A stretch of 64,000 nt of DNA from Candidatus Roizmanbacteria bacterium (GCA_013335175.1 JAAXWC010000004.1:40999-104998); one strand, 5' to 3'; positions 19,648 through 55,953 are shown, counted from the first letter of the stretch. Numbers and translations are program-made. The notes: generated by a model not told the origin, from the letters alone.

Positions 19648-20466
19648 TTATCTATACCGATTTATTTCATTTTGGAGCTTCTGAGACTCCTCCCGAGCAC
19701 GTGTCGCAAAATCTTCTTTATCTGATGCAAAAATAATCCCACGGGATGAATTGATAACTATCCCGGCATTGGAAGAATTTAATCCTGCTTTCACGGTCTT
19801 TTCTACATCCCCGCCCTGAGCACCGATACCGGGCACGAGAAAACTCATGTCCCCTGCCGTTTTTCGAACCTTTGCCAATTCCTCAGGATAGGTTGCGCCA
19901 ACAACTAACATACAATTCCCATTTTGATTCCACTCCCCCGCTACTTTTTCGGCAACCCTCTCATACAACGGTTTTCCCTCGACAAGTTGATTTTGAAACT
20001 CATCCGAACCAGAATTTGAAGTCTTACATAGGATAATCGCAATTTTATCTTTTCGATCGAGAAAGGGTTGAATCGCCTCTCTCCCCAGATACGGATGAAG
20101 GGTTATCGCATCAACACCAAGGTAGTCATAGGCAAACGTAACATATCCCGCATTTGTACTCCCAATATCGGCTCGTTTTGCATCTAAAATGGTTATAATG
20201 CCGGGATACGTTTGGTGGATATAATCGCAGGTCAGTTTCAACTCCCGAATCCCCTGTTCTCCCCGCGCTTCATAAAACGCGGAGTTAGGTTTGTAGGTAC
20301 ACACCAGATCGTGCGTGGCATCGATGATGGCTTTATTGAACTCAAACTGCGGATTTTCCTGAGATTGAATATGTTGCGGAATTTTTTCAAGCAATGGATC
20401 AAGCCCAACACACACAAGCGAATTGTTTTTTTGGATAATTGCATCCAGTTTTTGCTGTATGGACAT
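19648..20466 (-). CDS. pyrF: orotidine 5'-phosphate decarboxylase
   Basis: LVCVGLDP and ILDAKRADIGSTN motifs. Last gene of the pyr operon. Confidence 0.9.
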   Translation of the reverse strand: MSIQQKLDAIIQKNNSLVCVGLDPLLEKIPQHIQSQENPQFEFNKAIIDATHDLVCTYKPNSAFYEARGEQGIRELKLTCDYIHQTYPGIITILDAKRADIGSTNAGYVTFAYDYLGVDAITLHPYLGREAIQPFLDRKDKIAIILCKTSNSGSDEFQNQLVEGKPLYERVAEKVAGEWNQNGNCMLVVGATYPEELAKVRKTAGDMSFLVPGIGAQGGDVEKTVKAGLNSSNAGIVINSSRGIIFASDKEDFATRAREESQKLQNEINRYR

Positions 20467-20483
20467 AGTAAATATATGGATAA

Positions 20484-21125
20484 TTACACTGCGTTGCCTG
20501 CTTTTGCCTCAAGATATTTTTTTCCATGGCCGACCTGTGTATTAACGGGCACACCGTTTTTGCAAAGCTCACACTCAGCTTCTTCATACGAAACTACCTC
20601 CATAACTCCTAGCGCACGGAAATCAGAAACACCGATACTCTCTTTCGTTACAAGTTTTGGATCACGGTTTACCATCACCCCAACAGCGACCACCTCGCCT
20701 CCCGCAGCGCGAACGACATCAACTACTTTTTTGACAGAACCACCAGTGCTGGTGAGATCTTCTATGACCAGAACTTTTTTCCCCACAACGAGCTTATCAT
20801 AACCCCGTGTGAAGATCATCGATTTATCAGGCCCTTTTTCTGTGTAAACACCTAATACCTCTTTATTTTTTAATTGACCCAAATGATAGGCTGTCCACTG
20901 TGAAAGGATAATTCCTCCTAATGCCGGGGCCGCGACCACATCGATATCAAGATCGCTAAATTTTTCTGCAAACAGTTTACCTACTTCTGATGATGACTCT
21001 GTGTGTGGATACAAGGCATCTTTGTTTATATAAGCAGGTGAATGTCGGCCCGAGGTAAGCACAAAATGACTTTCTGTAATAACTGCTCCAACGTTTTTTA
21101 AAATTGAGATCACATCGTCATTCAT
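20484..21125 (-). CDS. pyrE: orotate phosphoribosyltransferase
   Basis: PRPP-binding motif VLVIEDLTSTGGS. Operon context. Confidence 0.9.
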   Translation of the reverse strand: MNDDVISILKNVGAVITESHFVLTSGRHSPAYINKDALYPHTESSSEVGKLFAEKFSDLDIDVVAAPALGGIILSQWTAYHLGQLKNKEVLGVYTEKGPDKSMIFTRGYDKLVVGKKVLVIEDLTSTGGSVKKVVDVVRAAGGEVVAVGVMVNRDPKLVTKESIGVSDFRALGVMEVVSYEEAECELCKNGVPVNTQVGHGKKYLEAKAGNAV

Positions 21126-21146
21126 AGATAAAAATAAATTTATAAA

Positions 21147-21563
21147 TTACTTAGCTGAAAAAAGCAAATAGATCCCACTACAAGCTAATAGTATCCCTAC
21201 TATTGCTTGTAAACTTAACTTTTCCTTCAAAAGGAGCACGCTCAGCAAAACTACTATTACCACACCACCAACGCGTAGAGTTGGCATAACAACAGCAGCC
21301 CCTGGGCCTTGAGAAAGAGCTTTAAAAGAAAATGTTGTAAATAATGCTATAAAAACCCCCCCTAACATAGCCAGCCCTATCCCTTTAGGATTAAAATCAG
21401 TTTTTCTTACTATAAGAAACAGTAACCATGAAGTGAGATAACTGCCTGTCTGAAACATAAGATTAGCAAATACCGGATCCTTCAGTCCTGAACCAAGTTT
21501 ACGTAAAATATCTGATAATCCTGAAAACCCAATTGCTGTAATTGCATATATAACCCAGTTCAT
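21147..21563 (-). CDS. small EamA-like (DMT superfamily) membrane protein
   Basis: 138 aa with 4 TM helices, resembling a single EamA domain. Embedded between pyrD and pyrE. Confidence 0.5.
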   Translation of the reverse strand: MNWVIYAITAIGFSGLSDILRKLGSGLKDPVFANLMFQTGSYLTSWLLFLIVRKTDFNPKGIGLAMLGGVFIALFTTFSFKALSQGPGAAVVMPTLRVGGVVIVVLLSVLLLKEKLSLQAIVGILLACSGIYLLFSAK

Positions 21564-21567
21564 ATGA

Positions 21568-22644
21568 TTATTTTAAAACCTTTTGTTTTATCTCTTGAGC
21601 AAGTAACGGATTCCACATGGCGCCAGTAGCACTCATAACTGCGTCTGCACCCACGTCAAGGAAGTCCTGATAATCCTGCGCATTCATTACTCCACCGACT
21701 CCCTCGATTTTGTAGGAATATCCTTTTTCCTCTTTGAGTTTTTTGAGACGTTTTACCATTTCGATCCCCGCCCATTTTATCGAGGTACCGCAGACACCGG
21801 ACTTGAGCCGCATCGGGCTTCCTGGCAGTGCCTGATTACCGTTTTTATCAACAATCGGTGCGGCTATCGTATTAATGGCCGAGATAGCGTGAGCATAGTT
21901 TGCACAGCTCTCCGCAAACTGAGCAAGAGCACCTTCATCAGCAAAATATCCAGTCTTGACGATAAGCGGAAGATCACCGATTTCTTTACGAACCGCTTTC
22001 AAAATTGCATCAGTTGCCGACAGGTTATAACAGACCAACCCTTCATTTCCAATGTTTGGACAAGACAGATTTGCTTCAAGTACTGTTGCCCCTGTCTCAG
22101 TCGCAAGTTTCGCCGCCAAAACAAAATCATCAATGAATTCCTGTGGCGTTTGATTGGGACGAACGGTTCCCATAAAGCTGAGGATGAGTACCTGACCTTT
22201 CCCTGCATAGGAAAGCGCTTTCTTTACATCATCCTGCCACTCAGACGGATCTTTGGAAGGGACACCAAAGGAGTTTGTAATCGAAAGCGGCTCAGAGTAA
22301 TCTTCTTTTACTACCAAAGGTTTCTCTGCACGTTCAATCGTTAAATCACCTTCAAGTTCAACGGGAAGAACATTGGGATGCGGATGACAGGGGAAAATAC
22401 CACTACGAACCGTTTTGTAGACGACAAGATCAAAGCCTTTTTCAAAAGCTCCCTTTACATACGCACTGTTTAGGATTGGGCCAGCGGGAATACCAAAGGG
22501 AAGATATACTTTGTGGCCGAAAAAATCATATGGTGGTTCACCGCTCTGTTGATAAACCGTTCCATCGATAAACGCCCCAAATGGACCTTCTTTGTAATTG
22601 TCTTCGTATGATTTTGTTGGATCATAAAATGGTGTTTTCAACAT
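21568..22644 (-). CDS. pyrD: dihydroorotate dehydrogenase (class 1-like)
   Basis: Active-site region ANLSCPN and a TIM-barrel FMN-binding C-terminus (GVGGV). Start set at MLKTPF (22644). Confidence 0.85.
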   Translation of the reverse strand: MLKTPFYDPTKSYEDNYKEGPFGAFIDGTVYQQSGEPPYDFFGHKVYLPFGIPAGPILNSAYVKGAFEKGFDLVVYKTVRSGIFPCHPHPNVLPVELEGDLTIERAEKPLVVKEDYSEPLSITNSFGVPSKDPSEWQDDVKKALSYAGKGQVLILSFMGTVRPNQTPQEFIDDFVLAAKLATETGATVLEANLSCPNIGNEGLVCYNLSATDAILKAVRKEIGDLPLIVKTGYFADEGALAQFAESCANYAHAISAINTIAAPIVDKNGNQALPGSPMRLKSGVCGTSIKWAGIEMVKRLKKLKEEKGYSYKIEGVGGVMNAQDYQDFLDVGADAVMSATGAMWNPLLAQEIKQKVLK

Positions 22645-22690
22645 TATGGTAATTATAAATGAGTAACTGCGATAAAATAACAATAAATTA

Positions 22691-23749
22691 CTAACTCCTG
22701 CACCGCACTATACGCCCCGATCCAGCCTCCATAAGCACGTTGCCATTCTCAAACACCGTTTTTCCCCTCAGTATCACCCGCTTCACTCTCCCCTTCCCTT
22801 TCATTCCTGCAAAGGGAGTCCAGCCGCATTTCGTATGAAGCCCCTCGTTTGTGATTTCGAACTCTTCATCGAGATCTATCTCTACTTTTGTATCAGGATC
22901 TGTCGGTAGGGAAAAAATTCGTTTTGGATTATCATAGAGTTTCGTTAAAATGTCCTCTCTACCTATTCTCCCCTCTTTCTCCGCCATAAAAAGAAGTGGT
23001 AACGTTGTTTCTAAACCAGGCACCCCAAAAGGCGGAGTGTCAGAATCTTTTTCTTCTTTCGTATGGGGAGCATGATCCGATTCTATCGTATCTACATATC
23101 TCAGATGTTCCCACAAGAAATCCTGATCCGCTTTTGATTTGAGTGAAGGCTTCATCCGTCCATAGGAACCTAAATGGGCAACATCATCTTCCGTGAGGAA
23201 TAAATGATGCGGACACACGCCACAGGTAATGGGCAACCCTTCTTCTTTTGCTTGTATAATCGGCTCCAACTCTTTTTTACTCGAAACATGACACACATGC
23301 GTCCGCTTTCCGTAAGCCCGTACAGCTTTGACCACATCTCCAATGGTGTCTTCCTCCGAATGAGTCAAAATCGGCTGAGGATACACCCAAGCTCGGAACA
23401 CTTTATCTAAAATATCGCCATTGATAAGAAAATTACCCGTTGTATGATTCAGATACAGTTTGATACCAAAAACTTTGTCGTGAATAAGAGGAAACTGATC
23501 AATATTATCCCCTAGCGAACCAAAATAAAAGCCTATATCACACACTGTTTTTGCCTTTGCGGATGCAATTTTTTCCGCTAATCGCTCAGCAGTAGTAACG
23601 GGGACCGCATTATTTGGCATATCCAAAACCGTGGTAAAGCCACCAGCTAGCGCAGCAGCCGTGCCCGTGAAAAAATCCTCTTTTTGTGTTTGCCCCGGAT
23701 CACGAAGATGAACATGGACATCTATGAAACCTGGGAATTGGGTAAGCAT
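22691..23749 (-). CDS. pyrC: dihydroorotase
   Basis: Metal-binding IDVHVHLRDPG and amidohydrolase fold motifs (HVCHVS, SDHAPH). Confidence 0.9.
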   Translation of the reverse strand: MLTQFPGFIDVHVHLRDPGQTQKEDFFTGTAAALAGGFTTVLDMPNNAVPVTTAERLAEKIASAKAKTVCDIGFYFGSLGDNIDQFPLIHDKVFGIKLYLNHTTGNFLINGDILDKVFRAWVYPQPILTHSEEDTIGDVVKAVRAYGKRTHVCHVSSKKELEPIIQAKEEGLPITCGVCPHHLFLTEDDVAHLGSYGRMKPSLKSKADQDFLWEHLRYVDTIESDHAPHTKEEKDSDTPPFGVPGLETTLPLLFMAEKEGRIGREDILTKLYDNPKRIFSLPTDPDTKVEIDLDEEFEITNEGLHTKCGWTPFAGMKGKGRVKRVILRGKTVFENGNVLMEAGSGRIVRCRS

Positions 23750-23814
23750 ACTATGTTGTTAATTTTTAATACGCTATTTGAAATAAGTCGCATTCGTCAT
23801 CTCAGACTGATGTA

Positions 23815-23890
23815 CGTCATCACGCTCATTGCATTCGCTGTCCGGAATGACAGTGAGGATAACAACGACTACCGGCGAGCGGGAGTGACG
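23815..23890. repeat. hairpin-repeat units inside the pyr operon (between carB and pyrC)
   Basis: GTCATCACGCTCATTGCATTCGCTGTCCGGAATGAC (compare 35946..35988) and AACAACGACTACCGGCGAGCGGGAGTGAC. Confidence 0.8.
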
Positions 23891-23937
23891 GTCTGTGCGT
23901 CTTTCCCGCAAACGAGGAACTGATGGTGGATGGGCAC

Positions 23938-26900
23938 TTACCGATACTCTCCCCATGCCTTAACCAATAAATCCTTATCCTTCTTTTCAGTCAGTGCCTT
24001 TACAAACAAAAATGCTTTTTCTCGATCCATAATAAGGTGAATATTGTTGTCTATAGCAGATCGACGGATAACATAGTACCCCTGTAATCCATCCCGTTCT
24101 CGATAATCGGTAACATTAATAGCAAGATCTATTTTTCCCTGTTTAAAACAATCCAAAACCGTCGGGGACATTTGCTCGTGAATTTTATATAAACGCTTCG
24201 ATGGAATACCGTTTGCTTTCATAAATTTATGCGTCTTCTCCGTAGCATAAATAGGCAATCCTAACTTATGGATACGCAAGAGCGTCGATAACAATTTCAC
24301 CTTGTTTTCATCGCCACCTATAGAAACAAAGATACCTTTTTTGGGGCGAGTTGCACCCACACTCAGTTCTGCTTTTAACAAGGCCTCTTCAACGTCTTCA
24401 CCAAAGGCCGCGGCTTCCCCAGTAGAAGACATTTCTACCCGGAGCACTGGATCGGCCCCTTCTAAACGTGCGAATGAAAATTGCGGTGCTTTCACTACCA
24501 CATAATCTTTGTACTCTACCTCAATTCGTTTTGCTTTTCCAAACAATGCATCCACTAAAATATCGGCAAAGTTTATACCTGTTGCTTTTGAAATAAACGG
24601 CAACGTACGCGATGCACGAACATTCATTTCTATCACATACACTTTTCTGTTTTTACTAATGAACTGAATATTGCATGGCCCAGTTACTTTTAATGCAGCA
24701 ACCAATTGCTTTGCAATCGAAACAATTTTTTGCTCTGTCTGCAAATAGATACGCTGCGGCGGAAAAACGATCGTTGCATCTCCTGAATGCACCCCCGCGT
24801 TTTCCACGTGTTCAGAAACAGCATAAACCTTCAATTCACCATTTTGTGCAATACCGTCAAACTCAATTTCCTGTGCGTCTTCAATAAATTTAGAGACCGT
24901 AATTGGATGCTCTTTGCTTACATCTGTTGCCATTTCAATAAACTCTAAAAGGTCCGATTCGTTATAGCACACATTCATCGCACTTCCAGAAAGCACATAC
25001 GAAGGCCGGATTAATACGGGATACCCAACTCGATTTGAGAACGATTTTGCCTCTTCAACTGTTACAAATTTATTCCATTCCGGTTGAGGAACATGAAGAG
25101 AATCTAGCAAATCAGAGAACTTATTTCTATCCTCTGCTCGATCAATATCGTCTGCCTGTGTACCAATAATTGGAATATTGTATGCAGCAAATTTTTTTGC
25201 ATTGTTATTCGGACGTTGCCCTCCCACGGAAATAATCATCCCCTGCGACTGTTCAAACTCATAGACATCGGCTACCCGTTCAAAACTGATTTCATCGAAA
25301 TACAAACGATCAGAAATATCATAATCCGTGGAAACCGTCTCAGGATTGCAGTTTATAACAATAGACGAATGGTGATGTTGTTTGAGCGCTAGTACGGTAT
25401 GTACATTTGTCCAATCAAACTCAACCGAAGATCCAATGCGGTACGGTCCAGAGCCGAGAACTATAATACCTTCTTTATGAAATGGCTCAATATCATGATA
25501 TGTTGCATTATAGGTAAGGTAGAGGTAATTTGTTTTTGCAGGAACCTCCCCTGCCAGGGTATCTATCTGTAAAACGGCAGGAATAACTTCCAATTTTTTT
25601 CGTTCTTGCCGCATTTCAAGCTCTGTTTTTCCACATAATAATCCAATTTTCCGGTCAGAAAAGCCCAATTGTTTTAAATGAAGGATCGTTTCACGGTTTA
25701 ATTTTGGTTCTTTTTGAAATGAAACCTGAGTATCTACAATGTTTTTTATTCGTGATAAAAACCATGGATCAATTCCCGTCTCCTTAGAGAGTTTTTCTAC
25801 CGTTATACCGCGTTTCAATGCTTCCGCAAGCGCGAAAATACGCTTTGGCGTGGGGGTTTTCGCTTCTTTTATGATATCGCATTTATCATCGGGAAACTTT
25901 TTATCCAACACTCCCTGATATCCAATATCTAGCATACGAATTGCTTTTTGCAACGCCTCTTCAAATGTTCTTCCAATTGACATCACTTCTCCCACTGATT
26001 TCATACTACTCCCCAATGAACTTTTTACATTTTTAAATTTCTCAAGATCCCAACGAGGAATTTTTACAACAACATAATCGAGTGCTGGTTCAAAAAAAGA
26101 TTGCGTTACTGATGTTACCTGATTTTTAATTTCAGATAATCGATACCCGAGTTGAATTTTGGCAGCGACATAGGCCAGCGGGTAGCCCGTCGCTTTTGAC
26201 GCTAGAGCAGACGAACGAGACAATCGCGCATTTACTTCGATGACATAATACTCAATTCGTCCTTTTTTTGGGTGTGGATTCAGCCCAAACTGAATATTAC
26301 ATTCACCAATAATATTCAATGTTTTGATGATAGAAATTGCGGCGGAACGAAGGGTATGGTACTCGAAATTATTCAGCGTCTGACTTGGAGCAACCACAAT
26401 CGACTCTCCCGTATGAATGCCAAGCGGGTCCATATTTTCCATATTGCAAACCGTCACACAGTTATCTTCTGCATCTCGAACAATTTCGTACTCTAATTCT
26501 TTGTAATGATGGAGATATTTATCTATTAATACCTGTGAAGAAAAAACCAGTGCATTTTTTGCTGTTTCCTTCAGTTCCTCCTCATTGTATGCAACTCCCG
26601 ATTTCTGACCGCCTAGTGCAAAAGCGGCACGAATCATAACCGGATAGCCAATTTCTTTCGCAAAAGCAACTGCCGCTTCAACCGATTCGGCCGCTCGACT
26701 GGCCGGTGCTGGAGCTCCAATAGAAGATAAATGTTTTGAGAACATATCCCGATCTTCTGTTAAGATTACAGAGTCCATGGGTGTTCCCAGTACTCGCACT
26801 CCATATTTCTTGAGAATACCTTTTTCGTACAGCTTAATGGCACAGTTTAGTGCCGTCTGTCCGCCAAACGAAACAGCAATCGCATCAGGGCGTTCTTTTT

Positions 26901-27138
26901 CGAGTACTTGTCCCACAAATTCAACTTCAACAGGAAGGAAATATACTTTATCTGCAAGTGATTCAGAGGTTTGAATCGTTGCAATATTCGGGTTTATCAA
27001 AACGGTTTTAATACCTTCTTCTTTGAATGCCTTAATCGCCTGAGAACCCGAATAATCAAACTCGCCAGCTTCACCTATTTTAAGCGCGCCAGAGCCAAGA
27101 ACAAGAATTTTTTTTGGTAGTTTTAGAAGCGGTGTCAT
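23938..27138 (-). CDS. carB: carbamoyl-phosphate synthase large subunit
   Basis: 1066 aa. Duplicated ATP-grasp halves. N-terminus ILVLGSGALKIGEAGEFDYSGSQA. Confidence 0.95.
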   Translation of the reverse strand: MTPLLKLPKKILVLGSGALKIGEAGEFDYSGSQAIKAFKEEGIKTVLINPNIATIQTSESLADKVYFLPVEVEFVGQVLEKERPDAIAVSFGGQTALNCAIKLYEKGILKKYGVRVLGTPMDSVILTEDRDMFSKHLSSIGAPAPASRAAESVEAAVAFAKEIGYPVMIRAAFALGGQKSGVAYNEEELKETAKNALVFSSQVLIDKYLHHYKELEYEIVRDAEDNCVTVCNMENMDPLGIHTGESIVVAPSQTLNNFEYHTLRSAAISIIKTLNIIGECNIQFGLNPHPKKGRIEYYVIEVNARLSRSSALASKATGYPLAYVAAKIQLGYRLSEIKNQVTSVTQSFFEPALDYVVVKIPRWDLEKFKNVKSSLGSSMKSVGEVMSIGRTFEEALQKAIRMLDIGYQGVLDKKFPDDKCDIIKEAKTPTPKRIFALAEALKRGITVEKLSKETGIDPWFLSRIKNIVDTQVSFQKEPKLNRETILHLKQLGFSDRKIGLLCGKTELEMRQERKKLEVIPAVLQIDTLAGEVPAKTNYLYLTYNATYHDIEPFHKEGIIVLGSGPYRIGSSVEFDWTNVHTVLALKQHHHSSIVINCNPETVSTDYDISDRLYFDEISFERVADVYEFEQSQGMIISVGGQRPNNNAKKFAAYNIPIIGTQADDIDRAEDRNKFSDLLDSLHVPQPEWNKFVTVEEAKSFSNRVGYPVLIRPSYVLSGSAMNVCYNESDLLEFIEMATDVSKEHPITVSKFIEDAQEIEFDGIAQNGELKVYAVSEHVENAGVHSGDATIVFPPQRIYLQTEQKIVSIAKQLVAALKVTGPCNIQFISKNRKVYVIEMNVRASRTLPFISKATGINFADILVDALFGKAKRIEVEYKDYVVVKAPQFSFARLEGADPVLRVEMSSTGEAAAFGEDVEEALLKAELSVGATRPKKGIFVSIGGDENKVKLLSTLLRIHKLGLPIYATEKTHKFMKANGIPSKRLYKIHEQMSPTVLDCFKQGKIDLAINVTDYRERDGLQGYYVIRRSAIDNNIHLIMDREKAFLFVKALTEKKDKDLLVKAWGEYR

Positions 27139-28166
27139 AGTCGTTCAATAAAATAATCAAAAATCCATTCTGTATCAAAAGGTCCACACATAGCTTCGGG
27201 ATGAAACTGAACCGACATGAATGGATATTTTGTATGAATAATGCCTTCATTCGTGCCATCGTTCCCATTGGTAAACCACGGTTTAAACCCATCGGGCATT
27301 TCCCCAATCGCAAATCCATGATTTTGAGTGGTAAGGAAACATTTTTTTGATCCTTCCAATACCACTGGCTGATTTTGGCCGCGGTGTCCAAATTTGAGTT
27401 TAAAGGTGTCTCCCCCGGCAGCCAATGAAAGAATCTGATTTCCCAAACAAATACCCATAGTAGGAACCTTATGCTCCAATGCTTTTTTAGCCGTTTCAAT
27501 TGTTTTATCAGCCATTTTTGGATCGCCCGGACCATTTGAAATGAGAATTGCATCAAACTTAAAATCGCTGGCAAACACATCATAATCCCAAGGCACTGTT
27601 ATTACCTGTAGTCCTCGACGTAATAAATTGCGTTTGATATTTTCTTTGGACCCGCAGTCGATCAGTACAATAGTTTTGTTCCCTTTTCCTTCCTTTTTCA
27701 CTTCTTTTGCTGATACCTGCGCTACCAGATTGTCTTTGTTTGGATCGTGGAATGAAATATGATCAGAAATAAGAATTTTACCGAGTGGAGATCCATCATT
27801 CCGAATTTTCTGTGCAAGAAATCGAGTATCTTTCATTTCTATCGCTGGAATCTGTTCATCTTTGAGCCACTGAGAAAGAGTCCGTTTACTTTCAAAGTGA
27901 GAGGGAGTATCGATATACTGTGAAACAATTAATCCTGATATCTGAATTTTTTCTGATTCCCAATAAACCGGATCGGGAACACCATAATTTCCAACAAGAG
28001 GATAGGTCAGTACCAAAATCTGTCCTTTGAAAGATGGATCGGTTAGGCTTTCCGGATAGCCTACCATTCCTGTCGAGAAGACAACCTCTCCAGATACCGA
28101 ATGGGGAGCCCCAAAGCTGGTTCCCAAAAACTCTGTTCCATCCTGCAAGAGTAGTTTAGTATTCAT
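27135..28166 (-). CDS. carA: carbamoyl-phosphate synthase small (glutaminase) subunit
   Basis: GATase motif GICLGNQIL with a C-terminal QFHPE. ATGA overlap with carB. Start set at MNTKLLLQDG (28166), which removes the overlap with pyrB. Confidence 0.9.
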   Translation of the reverse strand: MNTKLLLQDGTEFLGTSFGAPHSVSGEVVFSTGMVGYPESLTDPSFKGQILVLTYPLVGNYGVPDPVYWESEKIQISGLIVSQYIDTPSHFESKRTLSQWLKDEQIPAIEMKDTRFLAQKIRNDGSPLGKILISDHISFHDPNKDNLVAQVSAKEVKKEGKGNKTIVLIDCGSKENIKRNLLRRGLQVITVPWDYDVFASDFKFDAILISNGPGDPKMADKTIETAKKALEHKVPTMGICLGNQILSLAAGGDTFKLKFGHRGQNQPVVLEGSKKCFLTTQNHGFAIGEMPDGFKPWFTNGNDGTNEGIIHTKYPFMSVQFHPEAMCGPFDTEWIFDYFIERL

Positions 28167-28188
28167 AGTTCTCTCGTATTCAACAATG

Positions 28189-29169
28189 TTATTTTCCAAA
28201 AACAAGCGATAAGAGTGCCATTCGGACATACATTCCGTTTGGCACCTCGTGGGTTAAGTAATAAGCGCGAGGATCTGTATCTATTGCAGGGTCTATTTCC
28301 CCTACTCGCGGTAATGGATGCATAATAATCATATCGGCATTTCCTTTTTCTTTCAGTAGTTTTTTGGTGACAATAAATCTATTTTTGAGTACTTCGTATG
28401 TCGAAGGATCTGCCAATCGTTCCTTTTGAACTCGTGTCCAGTACCAGACCTGACAATCTGTCGGAATATCAGTTTCTTTTTCAATTTCAACGAGAGTTAC
28501 TCTCGCTTTGGTATATTCTTCAAATAGTTCTCGGGGAAGTCTGAGTTCTTTGGGTGAAAGGAGGTAAAATGTGTTTCCCGGGTAGAAAGAAAGTCCTTTT
28601 AAGAGCGAATGCACGGTACGGCCATACAAAAGATCTCCAGCGATTACCCCTTTGAGATGATCTAATCTACCAAATTTCTCGTAAAGGGTAAACATATCGA
28701 GCAGCGCTTGGGTTGGATGTTCACCAGAGCCATCGCCAGCATTCATTATAGGAATTCGAGAAAGTGCTTTGGCAGCTCGGGCAGGTGCTCCTTCTTCAAA
28801 GTGACGCATTACGATACCGTCGCTATACCCTTCGAAAACGCGAACTGTATCTTCTAGAGTCTCCCCTTTTATGGCAGAGGAGGTTTGCATGGGGTTTTGA
28901 TACTCAATCGTCTGACCACCAAGTCGTTTGATTGCAGCAGAAAAAGAACTGAAAGTGCGAGAAGAAGGCTCAAAAAAAAGCAGGGTTATTACTTTCCCTG
29001 CTAGTGCTTCCCCCTGTTCTCCATTTTGGAGACAGCGTTTAATAGTACTGGTTTTATGAAATAAAATTTCGAGAGACTGAGGGTCAAATTGACGAATAGA
29101 AATAATATGCTTTCCCGCGAAGTTTTGCCCGATTTTTACAGGATCGTCTACAAATACTTGAGTGTGCAT
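28189..29169 (-). CDS. pyrB: aspartate carbamoyltransferase catalytic subunit
   Basis: Carbamoyl-phosphate site FFEPSSRTFSSF and HPLPRV motif. Confidence 0.9.
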   Translation of the reverse strand: MHTQVFVDDPVKIGQNFAGKHIISIRQFDPQSLEILFHKTSTIKRCLQNGEQGEALAGKVITLLFFEPSSRTFSSFSAAIKRLGGQTIEYQNPMQTSSAIKGETLEDTVRVFEGYSDGIVMRHFEEGAPARAAKALSRIPIMNAGDGSGEHPTQALLDMFTLYEKFGRLDHLKGVIAGDLLYGRTVHSLLKGLSFYPGNTFYLLSPKELRLPRELFEEYTKARVTLVEIEKETDIPTDCQVWYWTRVQKERLADPSTYEVLKNRFIVTKKLLKEKGNADMIIMHPLPRVGEIDPAIDTDPRAYYLTHEVPNGMYVRMALLSLVFGK

Positions 29170-29308
29170 ATTTCTTTGTTGAGTCTATCAAACAACTAAT
29201 ACGCTGTCAATGTGTAATTTATTAACTTCTAACAATGAGCGTTCGGTTATAAAATCTAATCCAAAAATTGAATGTTTAGTGGTAAAATAGAAAAGGTATA
29301 CGCACATT

Positions 29309-29338
29309 GTCATTCCCGCACAGTCGGGAATCGTTGTT
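29309..29338. repeat. palindromic hairpin unit upstream of pyrB
   Basis: GTCATTCCCGcacagtCGGGAATCGTTGTT. Confidence 0.85.
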
Positions 29339-29391
29339 GGTTCTTTTAATCGTAGAGACGGCCAACCTGGCCGTCTAAAAAAAGGAATAAT

Positions 29392-29925
29392 GCGGGGGCA
29401 GATAATTGCGGTTATTGGTAGATATATGTTTAAGACTGCCGCGGTGTTGGAATGCTCAACTGTCCGTTTCCGATACAATGTGAGGAATTACGGACAGTTA
29501 GTCCCGCAAAGTGAAAGCACGAGCGGATACGTCGAGTGCATGAATGAGGCGGGGGCAGACAATTGCGGTTATTGGTAGATATGTGTTTAAGACTGCCGCG
29601 GTGTTGGAATGCTCAACTGTCCGTTTCCGATACAATGTGAGGAATTACGGACAGTTAGTCCCGCAACGTGATGGCATGAGGCGATTGAGCCGAATGCGAG
29701 AACGTGCGGGGGCAGACAATTGCGGTTATTGGTAGATATGTGTTTAAGACTGCCGCGGTGTTGGAATGCTCAACTGTCCGTTTCCGATACAATGTGAGGA
29801 ATTACGGACAGTTAGTCCCGCAACGTGATAGCATGAGGCGATTGAGCCGAATGCGAGAACGTGCGGGGGCAGACAATTGCGGTTATTGGTAGATATGTGT
29901 TTAAGACTGCCGCGGTGTTGGAATG
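29392..29925 (+). repeat. 157-bp tandem repeat (3 full units plus a partial 4th that runs into tRNA-Leu)
   Basis: GGGGGCAGA(C/T)AATTGCGG recurs at 29394, 29551, 29708 and 29865, a period of exactly 157. Each unit holds the tRNA upstream region, the first 17 nt of tRNA-Leu (GCCGCGGTGTTGGAATG), then a hairpin AACTGTCCGT..ACGGACAGTT. Units 2 and 3 differ at 1 position. Unit 1 has a divergent ~42-nt tail. Confidence 0.95.
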
Positions 29926-29991
29926 GCAGACAAGTCAGTCTCAAAAACTGATGGGGGCAACCCCGTGAGAGTTCGACTCTCTCCCGCGGCA
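29909..29991 (+). tRNA. tRNA-Leu (anticodon CAA), class II with long variable arm, no encoded CCA
   Basis: Acceptor GCCGCGG/CCGCGGC. Anticodon stem TCAGT/ACTGA with loop CTCAAAA. Variable arm GGGGGCAACCCC. T arm GAGAG-TTCGACT-CTCTC. Discriminator A. Confidence 0.9.
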
Positions 29992-30025
29992 CTAGAGTCG
30001 CTTTGCGAAGAACCAATATTTGTGT

Positions 30026-43522: not shown

Positions 43523-44720
43523 ACTTATCTATATTTCACCCTTTCCCCCTTCGCATTCTTACTCTCATAAAAATAGTGCTCTTGCATCGTTTTCATTTCA
43601 TCTGCTTTCGAATATCCAACACAAAAAGATTACGGTTCTTGCAGATGCAGGAGAACACCCAGAAGTCTCCGATCAGTTTTCACCCGATATTACCCTAGAT
43701 CGCTGCTGGAAACGCAACCATCCGTTTGTATTTATCCAGCTTCTTTTACGCATTCGTACCGAAAAAAGTTCTCAGGTTTTGGTTCAGTATGAGTGGAATG
43801 TGTTTGGATCTGGGTTGTGGTATCTTATCCAGTTTCCTGTGTTTCTCTGGGCACTTAAATGTATGAAAAAACGGGTAACGGTTGTTCTCCATGGAGTTCT
43901 TCTTAATTTTGCGCCACTCTCCCCGACTTTTATAGGGCTCTACTTATTAAATGGAATGGCTCAACTATTTTATAAAGCTGTATCGTATCAGTCAGATCGG
44001 GTAATTGTCCTCGAGGAAAAACTCAAGTCCGACCTTGTTCGTATCGGAATTCCTTCGAAAAAGGTGGGTTGGATCCCCCATGGGGTAGACACAGAGCTTC
44101 GTTCGATCGAAAAACAGTATGCACGAGAACTTTTAAACATACCGCGTGACTGCTTTTTGTTTGTCTATTTTGGATTTATTGCAGATTACAAAGCCCCAGA
44201 TATCCTTCTTAATCAATTTAGAACTCTTATTGATCAGGAAGAAATTTACCTCTATTTTGTAGGTGGCAAACGATTTCATAAAAAACACGACCTCTATTAC
44301 GAACGATTCATGAATCAGCTTGCCACCTGCACCGATCGTATCCACTTCACTGGCTATGTTTCCAAAGAACAGATTGAACTCTATCTTTCTGCCTGCGATG
44401 TAATGGTTTTTCCCCATCGCACCCTCCTTTCTTCTTCGGGCCCGCTCTCACTGGCTTATACCTTTGAAAAACCAATTCTGCTGTCGAATCAGCTAAAAGG
44501 GTATTTGGAGAGCCCCGACTTTCAAAAAGCACTACTTCATACTAAACTCAACGAGGAGTATTTGTTCTACGACTTTACGAAAAATCATTTAAAAGAAAAA
44601 ATCTATGAGGTATACCAAAATATGCAAAAACTACAGGACTTTTCCCTAGCTATGAAGCAGGCGCGAGCCTGGCCCCGTGTGGCGAAAATGTATGAGAAAA
44701 CACTGAGACCTGGTGAGTGA
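43515..44720 (+). CDS. GT-B glycosyltransferase (family 4/1-like)
   Basis: C-terminal GT1/4-type region FTGYVSKEQIELYLSACDVMVFPH...SSSGPLSLAYTFEKPIL. Paralogous to 50164..51474. Confidence 0.65.
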   Translation: MNKLIYISPFPPSHSYSHKNSALASFSFHLLSNIQHKKITVLADAGEHPEVSDQFSPDITLDRCWKRNHPFVFIQLLLRIRTEKSSQVLVQYEWNVFGSGLWYLIQFPVFLWALKCMKKRVTVVLHGVLLNFAPLSPTFIGLYLLNGMAQLFYKAVSYQSDRVIVLEEKLKSDLVRIGIPSKKVGWIPHGVDTELRSIEKQYARELLNIPRDCFLFVYFGFIADYKAPDILLNQFRTLIDQEEIYLYFVGGKRFHKKHDLYYERFMNQLATCTDRIHFTGYVSKEQIELYLSACDVMVFPHRTLLSSSGPLSLAYTFEKPILLSNQLKGYLESPDFQKALLHTKLNEEYLFYDFTKNHLKEKIYEVYQNMQKLQDFSLAMKQARAWPRVAKMYEKTLRPGE

Positions 44721-44723
44721 TAA

Positions 44724-45033
44724 CGTCATCCCCGACCTGCCTGCCCATCGAAGCCCTGGCGAAGTTGGGATCGGGGATCTATGTATTGTTTTATTGAATA
44801 GATTCCGGCATGTACGCCATGGTGGCGACAGCCATGCGGCATCGCAGGGTATGCCAGGGACCCGGACGTCACCCCTGCGAACGCAGGGGTCCAGAGGATC
44901 GATTACTACTGGAGTGATCGGTAATGCTGAAAAAGCAAGATACGATGTAATTAGTCCACTGGATTCCCCTGTTCAGGGGAATGACGAACATTGGTCATTC
45001 CGGCTTGCCCGGAATCGTTGTTAATGGAATTTG
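44724..45033. repeat. mosaic palindromic-repeat cluster
   Basis: Units GTCACCCCTGCgaacGCAGGGGTCCAG, GGATTCCCCTGttCAGGGGAATGAC and GTCATTCCGGcttgCCCGGAATCGTTGTT, plus a longer unit shared in inverted form with 45950..46050. Confidence 0.9.
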
Positions 45034-45089
45034 TTGGTTCAGTGACTTCGGCCCTAATTTGCAATGATAAAAATATATTTTCGTTCACA

Positions 45090-45416
45090 TTATTTATACA
45101 CCTTCTTTTTTTTATTATAGGAAGTTTTCTTTGTACCATATGCACTCTTTTTCTGTTCATCTTTCACTCTGTCGGCAATATATATTTTCATGAGTGATTG
45201 GTACGGAACATTCATCTTCCGCGCTTCAGATTTTATATCTTCCAATAAAGAAACGGGTAATCGAATACTAATTGTCTCCGTACTGAGTTTAAGGTTGGGA
45301 AATTCCATATGTACTGGCTTCCGTACATCGAAATACTCTGTAGTATTATGAGTTGCCCAAAACTCCCGTTCCTCACCTTCATTTTTGAACTTTGGTATTA
45401 CGTTTTTATTTTTCAT
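45090..45416 (-). CDS. CopG/RHH-type antitoxin (BrnA-like), no adjacent toxin gene
   Basis: EEREFWATHNTTEYFD...ISIRLPVSLLEDIKSEARKMNVPYQSLMKIYIADRV is typical of this antitoxin family. Start set at MKNKNV (45416). Confidence 0.65.
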   Translation of the reverse strand: MKNKNVIPKFKNEGEEREFWATHNTTEYFDVRKPVHMEFPNLKLSTETISIRLPVSLLEDIKSEARKMNVPYQSLMKIYIADRVKDEQKKSAYGTKKTSYNKKKKVYK

Positions 45417-45422
45417 TTGTAT

Positions 45423-45431
45423 ATTATGGCA
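45423..45431 (-). promoter_or_regulatory. extended -10 element (TGCCATAAT) 6 nt upstream of the antitoxin ATG
   Basis: The minus strand reads TTGACA-20 nt-CATAAT-atacaa-ATG with no Shine-Dalgarno, a leaderless-type arrangement. Confidence 0.4.
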
Positions 45432-45465
45432 ATATACAAAGTTACGATTGTCAAGAGCCACGTAA

Positions 45466-46070
45466 GTAATTATTCAGAAGTTTCCAAAGGCAGGCCATAG
45501 TTGTATTTTCTGTCATCCCCGACCTCTCTCCCGTCATCCCCGACCTCTCTCCCGTCATCCCCGCGAAGGCGGGGATCCAGTGGATCAATACTCTCTCCTT
45601 CAAAAAGAATGGCGGCCTGTCGCTCGTCTTTCCCACGCACTTGACTTCGAGCATCACACCATCGTCAAAAGTGCGTGAGACCCCTGACTCGTGCCACCCA
45701 TTCTTTTTTTTGGTTTGTTTGTCACTCCCGCTTGCCGGGAGTCGTTGTTACAGGTTAACATTGTCATTCTGGACTGAGGAGCCTGCCCCGAATTACGGGG
45801 CTCAAGGTTGTTATTCCGGCTCTCTCGTCATTCCCTCGAAGGAGGGAATCCATGGGAGGAGTCTGATGCAAGGGTCGGGATGGATCCCCGCCTACGCGAG
45901 GATGACGATGCAACGTCATTCCGGACAGCGAATGGAGTGAGCGTGATCCGGAATCTATACAATTCAACAATACATGGATCCCGGGTCCCTGGCATGCCCT
46001 GCGATGCCGCATGGCTGTCGCCGCCATGGCGTGCAAGCCCGGGATGACGTACATTAGTGAGGGATGACGG
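45466..46070. repeat. densest mosaic repeat cluster: 45-bp IR arm, 21-nt tandem half-units, inverted composite element, many hairpin units
   Basis: 45466..45510 is the exact reverse complement of 47777..47821. GTCATCCCCGACCTCTCTCCC occurs twice in tandem (45512..45553). The composite element lies inverted at 45597..45708. Units GTCACTCCCGcttgCCGGGAGTCGTTGTT and GTCATTCCCTCgaagGAGGGAATCC are also present. Confidence 0.9.
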
Positions 46071-46162
46071 CGAAACTCGAGACCAATAACGATTTTGTTC
46101 TCTTCTAAATAATTACAATTATTACTCTCGTATTTAGTAATACTTTATGTATAATTACTACT

Positions 46163-46423
46163 ATGCAAACAAGTTCATATACTCGAACCATTACCGTAAA
46201 GGGCCAGGTAACTATCCCCTTGGTTATTCGTCAAAAGTTAAAGATTAAACCTCAGGATAAAGTTGTATTTATTATCAATAAAGATACTGTTGAATTACAA
46301 CCTCCGAAACACACCCTCGATTCCCTGTTTACCCAGGCAAAACAGAGAAAAAGCAATAAGAAATATTCTGATAAAGAAATGATCGAGATAGCAAAACAGG
46401 AATTCATTTCTCAAAAAAAATAG
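46163..46423 (+). CDS. vapB: AbrB/MazE/SpoVT-family antitoxin (VapB-like)
   Basis: SpoVT/AbrB-like swapped-hairpin motif TITVKGQVTIPLVIRQKLKIKPQDKV. Located directly upstream of the PIN gene. Confidence 0.75.
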   Translation: MQTSSYTRTITVKGQVTIPLVIRQKLKIKPQDKVVFIINKDTVELQPPKHTLDSLFTQAKQRKSNKKYSDKEMIEIAKQEFISQKK

Positions 46424-46429
46424 CATCGT

Positions 46430-46840
46430 ATGTATTACCTTGATACCAATATATTTGTTCGAGCTCTCACGGGTGATGACGAAAAAAAGATGAAGCATTG
46501 TCAAGATTTGTTTCAAAAAATAGCTCAAAAAAAAGTAATAGCCACAACTTCAGAAACCGTTATCGCCGAGGTGGTGTATGTACTTTCCTCGAAAGTATTA
46601 AACTATGGATTCTCACGCAAAGAGATACGTGACCAGCTTGAAACACTGCTCATGCTGAACGGTTTCCGTTTTTCTCAAAAAGAAATGGTTATTCAAGCGT
46701 TGTATCTTTATGCAGAAAAAAACATTGATTTTTCCGATGCACTTCTTGCTCAGTATGCAATAAATTCTGAAGCAAACGGCGTGTACTCCTATAATACAGA
46801 CTTTGATAAAATACCTTCAGTAAAACGCAAAGTGCCATAA
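46430..46840 (+). CDS. vapC: PIN-domain ribonuclease toxin (VapC-like)
   Basis: N-terminal YYLDTNIFVR (first acidic PIN residue). 136 aa. Further acidic residues (SETVIAEV, DFSDALL, NTDFD). Confidence 0.8.
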   Translation: MYYLDTNIFVRALTGDDEKKMKHCQDLFQKIAQKKVIATTSETVIAEVVYVLSSKVLNYGFSRKEIRDQLETLLMLNGFRFSQKEMVIQALYLYAEKNIDFSDALLAQYAINSEANGVYSYNTDFDKIPSVKRKVP

Positions 46841-46911
46841 AAGAATCCCCGTTGTAGCATATAGTCCGTTGACTCCCCCACACTACAATCAAAAACAACG
46901 TCATCCTCGCG

Positions 46912-46920
46912 TGCTATAAT
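46912..46920 (+). promoter_or_regulatory. extended -10 promoter element TGCTATAAT, 8 nt upstream of the HEPN ATG
   Basis: TGnTATAAT consensus match with no Shine-Dalgarno before ATG 46929. Confidence 0.45.
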
Positions 46921-46928
46921 AGATATAA

Positions 46929-47261
46929 ATGAAAAAAGAAACAGAGGCTTGGTTAAATGTAGCAAAAGAAGATTATGCGGATATGCAGGTTATGATGCAG
47001 GCAAAACGATATCGAGGCGCTGTCTTTTTTGCACAACAGGCAGTTGAAAAAATCCTCAAAGGATATATCGCAGAATATACAAACACTGTACCCAAAAAAA
47101 CACATTTTATTGAAATTCTAATAAAAGATGCTAAATTAGAATTAGCAGAAATTGATAATCCAAATGTCGCAATACTTAGTAGTGCATATGCATGGGTCCG
47201 GTATTCAGATTTAAGCAATGAACATTTCAAAACAAAAAAAAATAACAAAAAAAAATATTGA
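46929..47261 (+). CDS. HEPN-domain protein, apparently frameshifted near the 3' end
   Basis: AKEDYADMQVMMQAKRYRGAVFFAQQAVEKILKGYI is a typical HEPN N-terminus. The expected C-terminal helix (EPLLVLAEQLYEWVQKKF) is encoded in another frame downstream of an A-rich tract (47229..47258). Confidence 0.6.
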   Translation: MKKETEAWLNVAKEDYADMQVMMQAKRYRGAVFFAQQAVEKILKGYIAEYTNTVPKKTHFIEILIKDAKLELAEIDNPNVAILSSAYAWVRYSDLSNEHFKTKKNNKKKY

Positions 47262-47294
47262 ACCATTATTAGTTCTTGCAGAACAACTCTACGA

Positions 47295-47615
47295 ATGGGT
47301 ACAGAAAAAATTCAAAGCTCAATAAAGATTTTTGTACAACGAGTACAAAAGAAATATAAGCCAAAAAAAGTGATCTTATTTGGTTCCTATGCTCGTGGTG
47401 AAGCAAATAGTTATAGTGATATCGATATTCTAGTAGTTGCCGATACATTCAAAGGAACTGAGCCATTTCAGCGAGTGTGTGATTTACACGATTTAGGAAA
47501 AGACCTTCAGCCAGACATTAATGCCTTCGGGTACACATCTACAGAATTAAAAGCAAATTCCTATAAGACAACTCTCCGTGATGCTCTTGCAACAGGAATT
47601 GAACTTACTGCATAA
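47295..47615 (+). CDS. nucleotidyltransferase-domain protein (MNT partner of HEPN)
   Basis: Pol-beta NTase motif VILFGSYARGEANSYSDIDILVV. Confidence 0.8.
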   Translation: MGTEKIQSSIKIFVQRVQKKYKPKKVILFGSYARGEANSYSDIDILVVADTFKGTEPFQRVCDLHDLGKDLQPDINAFGYTSTELKANSYKTTLRDALATGIELTA

Positions 47616-47621
47616 AAAAAC

Positions 47622-47821
47622 CCGTCATTCTCGAGCAAACGAACCCGGGCAAAGAGAAAACGCAACGTCAATCCTCCCCCACGATACAATACAAACCTAC
47701 GTCATCCTCCTGGACAGGAGGATCCAAGGGGTAATAAACATCCACACCATGGATCCCCGCCTTCGCGGGGATGACGGAAAATACAACTATGGCCTGCCTT
47801 TGGAAACTTCTGAATAATTAC
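47622..47821. repeat. 156-bp direct-repeat copy 1 (47622..47777) plus 45-bp IR arm (47777..47821)
   Basis: CCGTCATTCTCGAGCAAACGAACCCGGGCAAAGAGAAAACGCAACGTC ... GTCATCCTCCTGgaCAGGAGGATCCAAGGGGTAATAAACATCCACACCATGGATCCCCGCCTTCGCGGGGATGACGG. The same sequence occurs at 48376..48528. Confidence 0.95.
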
Positions 47822-47832
47822 AATTGTAGCCA

Positions 47833-47861
47833 TTGACATTCTACATACATTCTACTACAAT
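47833..47861 (+). promoter_or_regulatory. sigma70-type promoter TTGACA-17-TACAAT
   Basis: -35 TTGACA at 47833..47838, a 17-nt spacer, -10 TACAAT at 47856..47861. GTG 47868 lies 6 nt downstream with no SD, consistent with a leaderless transcript. Confidence 0.6.
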
Positions 47862-47867
47862 GTGTTT

Positions 47868-48038
47868 GTGAAGAAAATTAGCTGGAACGAAGAGAAAAAT
47901 GATCTGTTACGAAAAACGAGAAATGTATATTTTGAGTTGATAGAAGAAGCAATTATAAATGGAAACGTGCTTGATGTTGTTCAAATAAAAAAAACCGTTA
48001 ATAATTCCATTATGTACTATGAAAAAACAAACACATAA
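47868..48038 (+). pseudogene. truncated BrnT-like (DUF497-type) toxin remnant
   Basis: 56 codons. The N-terminus KKISWNEEKNDLLRKTRNVYFELIEEAI matches the BrnT pattern (W-[DN]-E-x-K-N-x3-L-x-K-x3-[VI]-x-F-E). It ends just after an A8 run at about two-thirds of the usual family length. Overlaps the antitoxin start by 20 nt. Confidence 0.5.
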
Positions 48039-48327
48039 CTATCAATTAGATCCCGAAGAGAAGCAACTAGTTGCTGATATAGAAAGCGGCAACTATCGGT
48101 CTATTCCCTATCTGGAAGAAGAAAAGAAACGCTATCAGTCGTATGCGCGATCTTCACAAGAACTACGAGCCGAAAATAGGAAAGATAAAAATATAAATAT
48201 ACGTATTTCTTCGGGTGATATTGAAAAAATTCAAGAGCGAGCTATCCAGAATGGCCTCCCCTACCACACCCTTATTTCCACGGTTCTGCACCAGTTCGCA
48301 AATGGGAAAATTGAAGTAAAGCTGTAA
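48019..48327 (+). CDS. CopG/RHH-type antitoxin
   Basis: DPEEKQLVADIESGNY...INIRISSGDIEKIQERAIQNGLPYHTLISTVLHQFANGKIEV is the typical C-terminal RHH antitoxin pattern. Confidence 0.65.
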   Translation: MKKQTHNYQLDPEEKQLVADIESGNYRSIPYLEEEKKRYQSYARSSQELRAENRKDKNINIRISSGDIEKIQERAIQNGLPYHTLISTVLHQFANGKIEVKL

Positions 48328-48375
48328 ATATCCTTCCTTTGTAGCACATATTTATTCAGCAATAAATCAAAAGCA

Positions 48376-48808: not shown

Positions 48809-48837
48809 TTGAAATTTTAATCCTTTTATGCTATACT
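48809..48837 (+). promoter_or_regulatory. sigma70-type promoter TTGAAA-17-TATACT
   Basis: -35 at 48809..48814, a 17-nt spacer, -10 at 48832..48837. About 265 nt upstream of the next SD-preceded start (49109). Confidence 0.55.
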
Positions 48838-49381: not shown

Positions 49382-49387
49382 AATACA

Positions 49388-51474: not shown

Positions 51475-51478
51475 TACT

Positions 51479-55940: not shown

Positions 55941-55953
55941 AAAATGCTCTATA

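Follow-up and report, generated by a model that had tools for sequence, protein, structure and literature searches.

A tandem array of interrupted tRNA fragments lies directly upstream of an intact tRNA-Leu(CAA) gene in a stretch of 64,000 nucleotides from Candidatus Roizmanbacteria bacterium (GCA_013335175.1 JAAXWC010000004.1:40999-104998; this whole stretch is referred to as the window). The interrupting sequence, termed element E, is a two-hairpin DNA element that apparently has not been described before and that is also present in only distantly related ultra-small bacteria of the Candidate Phyla Radiation (CPR); searches of full-text papers gave no description of it. At seven loci E sits as a discrete insertion at an exact position within a tRNA loop, and the copies belong to one family, share a conserved structure and occur in arrays. 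Because E is found in both orientations relative to the tRNA genes, it is inserted DNA acting at the DNA level rather than an intron, leader element or pseudo-tRNA. We put at roughly 55% the probability that E is a non-autonomous, site-specific mobile hairpin element, probably moved in trans via a folded single-strand intermediate.

An earlier note on this DNA, made from the sequence alone, had described a 157-bp array of three full units and a partial fourth preceding a tRNA-Leu(CAA) gene at 29909-29991. Tandem Repeats Finder identified a single array at 29391-29925 (period 157, 3.4 copies, 94% matches, 0% indels, score 942), and a repeat search returned three 157-nt copies starting at 29392, 29549 and 29706 together with a 63-nt module present four times (29392, 29549, 29706 and 29863; mutual identity 97-100%), bearing out the description. 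The intact gene was likewise found by ARAGORN (29909-29992) and by Rfam (tRNA, 52.8 bits at 29909-29991). The window contains the 38-nt hairpin core three times, where 0 occurrences would be expected. Two details required correction. The copied upstream stretch is 46 nt long rather than 44 nt, and the tRNA copy, although it does include nucleotides 1-17, does not end there: following a 100-nt insert the tRNA sequence picks up again with GCAGACAA, which is nucleotides 18-25, indicating that the hairpin module was inserted inside a tRNA 5′ fragment and is not a fusion partner. The unit therefore has the architecture L-E-R-S′, in which L (17 nt) is tRNA nucleotides 1-17, E is 100 nt, R (8 nt) is tRNA nucleotides 18-25 and S′ is a 32-nt spacer that also directly precedes the intact gene. 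When the unit is aligned to the Rfam tRNA consensus in standard numbering, E falls between G18 and G19 of the D-loop. Leftward, the array runs on into an older copy, now truncated, at about 29385-29437.

Units 2 and 3 are one base apart (G 29673 versus A 29830), upholding the proposal that they arose by recent duplication; they represent either a very recent duplication or a repeat insertion. Unit 1, for which the note gave a different ~42-nt tail, is identical to unit 2 over 118 nt and differs from it at 24 positions, all of which fall within unit positions 73-111 (29510-29548; 39 nt) in the interior of hairpin 2. Differences packed into 39 nt do not resemble clock-like decay, and this comparison of sequences indicates that two E variants are present rather than one drifting copy. 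ViennaRNA predicted a helix in the hairpin-2 interior of both units, and by our reading some of its pairs appear to have changed on both sides between unit 1 and unit 2.

Across the family E measures 62-100 nt. Hairpin 1 has 10-bp arms (AACTGTCCGT / ACGGACAGTT) extended by TTCC/GGAA, a stem recognized in the earlier note and present in all three units; this long conserved hairpin contains invariant unpaired T residues and tandem GA motifs. Hairpin 2 is GC-rich with a variable interior and in the window takes the form TCCCGC...GCGGGG. Its 5′ strand, TAGTCCCGC, had been taken for an echo of the tRNA acceptor strand, a likeness that is coincidental, since this strand is also kept in E copies beside unrelated tRNAs. 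Folding the units, as the note had suggested, gave strongly structured predictions in the window (-39 to -50 kcal/mol, z = -5.4 to -7.0), with z-scores of -4.4 to -7.0 across the family copies, and the family alignment showed covariation. In the alignment used for the covariance model 99.2% of cells were paired and there were 13 double-sided changes, a number reached in 0 of 500 shuffles; three base pairs exhibited four pair types apiece, while the ten lower-stem pairs were preset by the search pattern and are uninformative for covariation. Compensatory changes were also observed in hairpin 2 (TCCCGC/GCGGGA, TCCCGAT/ATCGGGA, TCCCGCC/GGCGGGA and GCCGAGC/GCTCGGC). Wobble pairing in the model helices amounts to four cells, every one a G-U on E's strand and none an A-C, and the sense strand folded better in six of nine E copies, indicating that E's own strand is the one that folds.

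To look for further copies, 185,579 species-representative genomes were scanned with a pattern fixing the 10-bp stem. This yielded 54 loci, mostly unrelated terminators or other repeats; six had the flanks of E (..TG followed by YTMAACTGTCCGT ... ACGGACAGTT ARTCCCG..CGGGA), and all six abut tRNA genes. A metagenome scan contributed one further locus (L057), giving eight known loci with the window included. A covariance model of hairpin 1 (R1) scored ten true copies at 50-85 bits, compared with at most 21.6 bits for chance hairpins sharing the stem, and within the 64-kb window it detected no additional E copy. Most host labels name Microgenomates, Roizmanbacteria or Patescibacteria; one reads only "bacterium", and one metagenome-assembled genome (MAG) is labelled Gammaproteobacteria. 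The search for the hairpin elsewhere that the note had proposed thus located seven other tRNA-adjacent loci, whereas blastn of one unit against plasmids and phages, scans of viral contigs and the rest of the window gave no match. Short-read assemblies repeatedly break at or just past loci where the element and the tRNA duplicate lie together (the end of L001, equivalent to window 29456, and the ends of L064 and L065), so that metagenome bins probably contain too few of them.

The same 10-bp stem, with other flanks and another loop (cgAACTGTCCGTAG..CTACGGACAGTTcg), was also encountered in a multi-copy 48-nt palindromic repeat of Acidimicrobiia/Actinomycetota MAGs (e.g. L008, L014, L022, L026, L029, L036 and L040; related L006, L023, L031 and L034). 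Judged by its sequence this looks like an unrelated family resembling repetitive extragenic palindromic (REP) sequences; these loci lay outside the covariance-model search and hence carry no model score.

All tRNA-loop copies follow one plan when read on E's strand: a tRNA piece ending in ..TG (L), then E, then the next tRNA nucleotides (R). In six of the seven loci these are followed by a spacer and an intact gene of the same tRNA, at a distance of 8-36 nt (Table 1). L and R are contiguous in the tRNA, so that the target is neither duplicated nor deleted at the junctions. Two loci carry E sense in the D-loop, after G18, and five carry it antisense in the T-loop, after the complement of C56; in both classes the insertion point on E's strand is a constant 17 nt from the first base of the acceptor stem. 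The G18-Ψ55 and G19-C56 pairs form the elbow of folded tRNA, and the two insertion steps, G18/G19 and 55/56, are therefore mutually pairing. The left flanks end in CTTG (four loci), TTTG (one), AATG (two) or CAGG (one), having only ..TG/..GG in common. The L segments amount to direct repeats of 17-19 nt of tRNA, 95-100% identical, which flank E-R-spacer. The spacer itself gave no significant signal when S′ was evaluated as a degenerate tRNA copy or as a conserved segment between the window and L020 (p = 0.54, 0.48, 0.04).

Table 1. Insertion sites of E at the eight loci and coordinates of the array features in the window. A slash marks the insertion point; sense and antisense are relative to the tRNA.
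Locus or feature	Position	Strand or orientation	R and spacer	Description or evidence
Window, tRNA-Leu(CAA)	D-loop G18/G19	E sense	R 8 nt; spacer 32 nt	
L020, tRNA-Leu(CAG)	D-loop G18/G19	E sense	R 7 nt; spacer 20 nt	
L038, tRNA-Leu(GAG)	T-loop 55/56	E antisense	R 6 nt; spacer 12 nt	
L045, tRNA-Val(GAC)	T-loop 55/56	E antisense	R 9 nt; spacer 8 nt	
L050, tRNA-Val(TAC)	T-loop 55/56	E antisense	R 7 nt; spacer 12 nt	
L057, tRNA-Leu(GAG)	T-loop 55/56	E antisense	R 4 nt; spacer 36 nt	
L028, tRNA-Gly-like pseudogene	T-loop 55/56	E antisense	R 66 nt; spacer about 6 nt	
L021, eighth copy	directly after tRNA-Thr 3′ end			
Possible decayed older element copy	29294..29331	+		AGGTATACGCACATTGTCATTCCCGCA resembles hairpin-1 3′ arm, linker and hairpin-2 start; then hairpin ATTCCCG..CGGGAAT
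E0, truncated tail of older element copy	29385..29397	+		GAATAATGCGGGG resembles E1 end TGAATGAGGCGGGG; alignment of 29381-29437 with unit 1 end
R0 + S′0	29398..29437	+	S′0 32 nt, 1 mismatch	GCAGATAA is a copy of tRNA nt 18-25 with 1 mismatch
L1	29438..29454	+		copy of tRNA-Leu nt 1-17 (GCCGCGGTGTTGGAATG), ends at D-loop G18
E1, two-hairpin element variant a, 100 nt	29455..29554	+		hairpin 1 29458-29499, hairpin 2 29502-29554; 84.7 bits; z = -5.4
R1 + S′1	29555..29594	+	S′1 32 nt	GCAGACAA identical to tRNA nt 18-25
L2	29595..29611	+		copy of tRNA nt 1-17
E2, variant b, 100 nt	29612..29711	+		hairpin-2 interior 24 differences from E1; -49.6 kcal/mol, z = -7.0
R2 + S′2	29712..29751	+		alignment of units
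L3	29752..29768	+		copy of tRNA nt 1-17
E3, 100 nt	29769..29868	+		1 nt apart from E2 (A at 29830)
R3 + S′3	29869..29908	+		directly upstream of intact tRNA
Intact tRNA-Leu(CAA)	29909..29991	+		target site uninterrupted, GGAATG/GCAGAC; ARAGORN, Rfam

The arrays are polar, with older copies lying farther from the gene both in the window and at L020, where the period is 107 bp and the hairpin modules are increasingly decayed away from the gene. A candidate relic beyond the window array (29294-29331) is suggestive only, as 21 of 28 aligned columns are identical (shuffle p ~0.13). Two copies, L038 and L045, were found in the same MAG within different tRNAs (Leu(GAG) and Val(GAC)), and by our reading their E sequences seem closely similar. 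Three separately listed assembly records contain the L038 locus, and L038 and L057 may not be independent events.

Several further observations were made at individual loci. In a decayed upstream copy of L020, a hairpin-2-type module (TCCCGATCAGATCGGGATT; 5102-5120) is 84% identical to the long variable arm of tRNA-Leu(CAG) (5317-5335), reflecting either chance or exchange between element and tRNA. At L028 the fragment is a diverged tRNA-Gly-like copy, and the intact neighbouring tRNA-Gly(GCC) differs from it in sequence; the E-bearing pseudogene (~4730-4800, minus strand) lacks nucleotides 1-8, and its 17-nt anticodon arm has been swapped for CCCCGCCAAAGGCGGGA, the hairpin-2 module of the L020 and L057 E copies. 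In L057 a second fragment (~3060-3125, minus strand) resembles the 5′ half of a tRNA-Thr but has another acceptor stem; at the anticodon loop it runs into a long, unrelated hairpin (GTAGTAGTAAGCTAATT..AATTAGCTACTTACTAC). Fragments of tRNA beside hairpins may be a wider phenomenon in these genomes.

That E is a non-autonomous element is argued by its small size and lack of coding capacity, by a strand-specific fold with unpaired T residues, by TG-adjacent insertion without duplication, and by its spread to different tRNAs in one genome together with polar, decaying arrays. Under a model of this kind, the target of E would be the loop of the first cloverleaf arm on its own strand, entered after ..(A/T)TG at a distance of 17 nt from where the acceptor strand starts, with no target sequence duplicated or lost. 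An enzyme encoded elsewhere would move it in trans by recognizing the folded E-sense single strand, much as single-stranded DNA transposases and recombinases do. Insertion into a single-copy tRNA gene would be lethal, so that only copies with an intact gene nearby would be seen, namely those in which a short tRNA piece (L plus R) carries E at a distance of 8-36 nt from the intact gene. At least two element variants would have reached the tRNA-Leu(CAA) D-loop in the window, after which the 157-bp L-E-R-spacer unit would have been amplified locally, leaving the newest units beside the gene. Mobility in trans, the single-stranded intermediate and the regeneration of an intact gene copy are the parts of this model that we infer. 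Formally, the product is a tandem duplication of spacer, L and R with E in the gene-distal copy; this description fits the D-loop class but not the T-loop class, where the sequence outside L bears no relation to the spacer.

A number of observations weigh against the mobile-element model. A Pfam scan of window open reading frames (ORFs) of at least 150 aa revealed no transposase, integrase or reverse transcriptase, and the mobilizing enzyme is accordingly hypothetical; the sequence considered comprised 64 kb of this genome and 8-kb pieces at the other loci. No protein or neighbouring gene is shared among the eight loci. Neither an empty site nor a presence/absence polymorphism was obtained, as relatives are 59-65% identical and synteny is lost: the closest PyrB proteins, from Roizmanbacteria, Levybacteria and Patescibacteria, show 59-65% identity, and when an E-less orthologue of L038 was sought through the neighbouring antiporter, the homologues were at most 65% identical and the tRNA was not syntenic. 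The PyrB homologues make a CPR bacterium the most likely source of the window and speak against a Bacteroidetes origin. GC skew on E's strand, a noisy quantity over 8 kb, was negative at four loci and positive at four, giving no evident replication-strand bias. The census of eight loci, having been obtained with a fixed 10-bp stem, is small and biased. The consistent architecture fits no known transposition mechanism: R stops near the base of the arm, and in every case the intact gene lies 3′ of E. Finally, four of the five T-loop fragments carry CCA while the genes beside them do not encode it, which is unexpected for a purely DNA-level event.

The CCA sequence raises the question of whether mature tRNA takes part. 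In four of the five T-loop loci L opens with the complement of CCA, and in the fifth with CC, whereas CCA is encoded by only 2 of the 21 tRNA genes in these loci (Fisher's exact test, p = 0.005). Together with an R that is short and variable (4-9 nt, and 66 nt in L028), as expected of truncated cDNAs, these sequences suggest that the fragment is a copy of mature tRNA and hence may have involved reverse transcription. One possibility is a hitherto unrecognized mobility system that reads tRNA shape rather than sequence, in which an enzyme would dock on a folded tRNA or tRNA-like strand 17 nt from the acceptor end, act at the elbow with mature CCA-tailed tRNA as template or scaffold, and through reverse transcription leave an E-bearing fragment beside the intact gene; we consider this unlikely. 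Also quite unlikely in our estimation is a retro-mobile or tRNA-templated element, for which reverse transcription of mature tRNA would help to make the fragment-plus-E blocks. Either a short cDNA primed from the CCA end would receive E and integrate beside the gene, or the mobilizing enzyme would bind folded tRNA or tRNA-like DNA at its elbow, where G18/G19 and 55/56 pair according to the established structure and the Rfam alignment. However, the D-loop units contain gene-upstream DNA that is not part of mature tRNA, and the direction of E with respect to the tRNA is reversed between the two classes, which a single RNA-level insertion reaction cannot give. No reverse transcriptase was found among window ORFs of at least 150 aa, and the possible non-independence of L038 and L057 also counts against this reading.

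Integrase-mediated integration offers a second route to tRNA repeats. Here the units would be att remnants or cis-mobilizable mini-elements, with the tRNA pieces as att direct repeats and E as a leftover element end or a later insertion into a non-essential att copy. The direct repeats run from the loop to the tRNA end and flank E-R-spacer, the T-loop L plus R (nucleotides 49-76) spans what att repeats of T-loop-integrating elements typically span, and arrays do build up at an intact site. Even so, we regard this explanation as rather improbable. No integrase was found at or near any of the eight loci, and the whole "element" would comprise merely ~80-140 bp. There is no contiguous core, because E splits it at 55/56 or G18/G19, which a conservative site-specific exchange could not yield. 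The duplicated end is the 5′ one in two loci, and CCA stands on the fragment, whereas classically it would be the reconstituted gene that carries it. Strand-specific covariation also suits a folded single strand better than duplex binding sites.

That conserved, strand-specific structure might instead belong to a functional RNA, with the unit or E alone transcribed as a small RNA (a tRNA precursor leader or processing element, a decoy pseudo-tRNA or an antisense regulator). Consistent with this, the window array is co-oriented with the tRNA, and L of the antisense class would be perfectly complementary to the mature tRNA 3′ end, CCA included. Nevertheless, such a role appears decidedly improbable. 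Neither a sigma-70-like promoter nor a terminator was predicted inside the units, so that the tRNA-promoter-driven hairpin RNAs listed in the earlier note find no support, and its decoy or regulatory pseudo-tRNAs sit poorly with the antisense orientation of E in five of the seven other loci, which argues against a role in the tRNA transcript. Among the options it gave, integrations or recombinations at the D-loop come closest, E being a discrete insert there. Rfam, searched at the gathering threshold and at an E-value of 10, matched only the tRNA and not the units; the family keeps no single orientation of E with respect to the tRNA; and decaying older copies with variable copy number look selfish rather than maintained by purifying selection.

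An assembly artefact, in which the tandem copies would stem from a mis-assembled repeat, is barely credible: although the copy number is that of the assembly and the array is where short-read contigs break off (L001 at 29456), three distinguishable unit sequences are present, the independent Logan contig L001 (100% identical to window 23840-29456 and broken inside the array) holds the junction between tRNA nucleotide 17 and the insert, the L038 locus recurs in separate assembly records, and the same architecture, including an array, exists in other genomes. When spurious ORFs spanning the array and the right-hand neighbour were looked up as exact matches, no other assembly was on record; L066, which begins inside the tRNA, is uninformative here.

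Set against known systems, an E mobile in trans would by analogy be nearest in mechanism to the palindrome-associated elements (PATEs) of IS200/IS605 and to REP sequences with their RAYT transposases, nearest in lifestyle to tRNA-targeting integrative elements, and nearest in form to fungal mitochondrial double-hairpin elements. Like PATEs and REP or bacterial interspersed mosaic elements (BIMEs), E is small and non-coding, has imperfect hairpins with conserved unpaired bases that fold strand-specifically, and is inserted by a short left-flank motif without target duplication, although IS200/IS605-type insertion follows a fixed 4-5-nt target and the E loci have only ..TG/..GG in common; movement in trans would be a further likeness. 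Its hairpins lie at or near both ends and both covary, as in IS200/IS605-type elements. Unlike theirs, however, its target is a structural position in tRNA loops and not just a tetranucleotide, the noisy local GC skew gives it no evident replication-strand bias such as their preference for the lagging-strand template, and its partial target copy beside an intact target is without counterpart there. The guide/cleavage-site arrangement of IS608 needs room to the left of the hairpin, and hairpin 1 of E begins only 3 nt from the left junction, leaving no such room. A Y1 (HUH) transposase was not found among the window ORFs of at least 150 aa.

Elements that integrate into tRNA genes, with their integrase-less derivatives (cis-mobilizable elements and att-site arrays), likewise use them as landing sites, leave an intact tRNA and a direct repeat, and can build up in tandem, but E is 62-100 nt long, has no integrase, sits inside the loop that would serve as the crossover core, has a folded-strand structure, and uses the 5′ part of tRNA-Leu in two loci. 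The double-hairpin, GC-cluster and palindromic elements of Allomyces and chytrid mitochondrial DNA share with E a length of tens of nucleotides, two adjacent hairpins and the absence of coding sequence, and the double-hairpin elements are mobile despite this absence; E is unrelated to them in sequence and hosts, and neither tRNA-loop specificity nor an accompanying target duplication is known for them. Rolling-circle (HUH) elements such as IS91 insert next to CTTG or GTTC without duplication, and their one-ended events give tandem multimers with flanking DNA. Four E copies follow ..CTTG, whereas the others follow TTTG, AATG or CAGG; no ori or ter ends and no HUH gene were recognized at E, and capture from a donor site by rolling-circle replication would not give flanks that match each local tRNA. 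What sets E apart, as a small hairpin element probably mobilized in trans, is its unusual, structurally defined tRNA-loop target and its coupling to target duplication.

Other classes were tried and rejected. Integron attC sites resemble E as folded single-strand sites with unpaired bases, and G/CTCAAC ... GTTAGTC recalls the RYYYAAC ... GTTRRRY boxes, but the outer box halves (GCTC / AGTC) are unpaired, there is no integrase or cassette context, and the junctions lie at the ends of E, not at G/TT. A miniature inverted-repeat transposable element (a DDE-transposon derivative) is rejected for the absence of terminal inverted repeats, E ending in CTCAAC.. and ..GCGGGA, and of target-site duplication at the junctions. 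A tRNA intron (group I or bulge-helix-bulge) does not account for an E that is antisense in five of seven tRNA-loop copies, is hosted by fragments while intact genes lack it, and has no Rfam intron match. A type III toxin-antitoxin RNA repeat array would directly precede an endoribonuclease toxin gene, whereas downstream of the array are the tRNA and a convergent AAA_14/DUF4143 ATPase. Split tRNAs and a CRISPR-like array were also considered and rejected.

Patescibacteria, or CPR bacteria, have tiny genomes generally regarded as poor in mobile DNA. If mobile, E would be a conserved gene-less element that colonizes essential single-copy tRNA genes in distant lineages without destroying them, and would thus represent a new solution to the "safe harbour" problem, which integrases solve via a replacement tRNA end. 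Targeting of the elbow positions and the CCA-bearing fragments hint at recognition of nucleic-acid shape, possibly with RNA-templated DNA synthesis, either of which would be of interest for transposition and for programmable insertion tools. On a practical level, E breaks short-read assemblies at tRNA genes, and its pseudo-tRNA fragments can confuse annotation.

Other features of the window were also recorded. In the interval that separates the array from the divergent start of pyrB, 29348-29377 holds a strong hairpin (GAGACGGCC-AACC-TGGCCGTCT) followed by A7, which on neither strand was terminator-like in the scan used. Although CPR bacteria are usually regarded as poor in nucleotide biosynthesis, the minus strand at 19648-29169 carries a pyrimidine-biosynthesis cluster (carB, carA, pyrB, a pyrC-like amidohydrolase, pyrD, a pyrE-like phosphoribosyltransferase and pyrF). 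Farther downstream, 44700-58200 may be an integrated mobile or secretion-related island, in which a run of short plus-strand ORFs (~44.7-49.4 kb) precedes genes for a 1227-aa protein that matches no Pfam family, for a member of the AbiEii toxin family (55230-55940) and for a coupling ATPase resembling VirD4/TraG (55954-58131).

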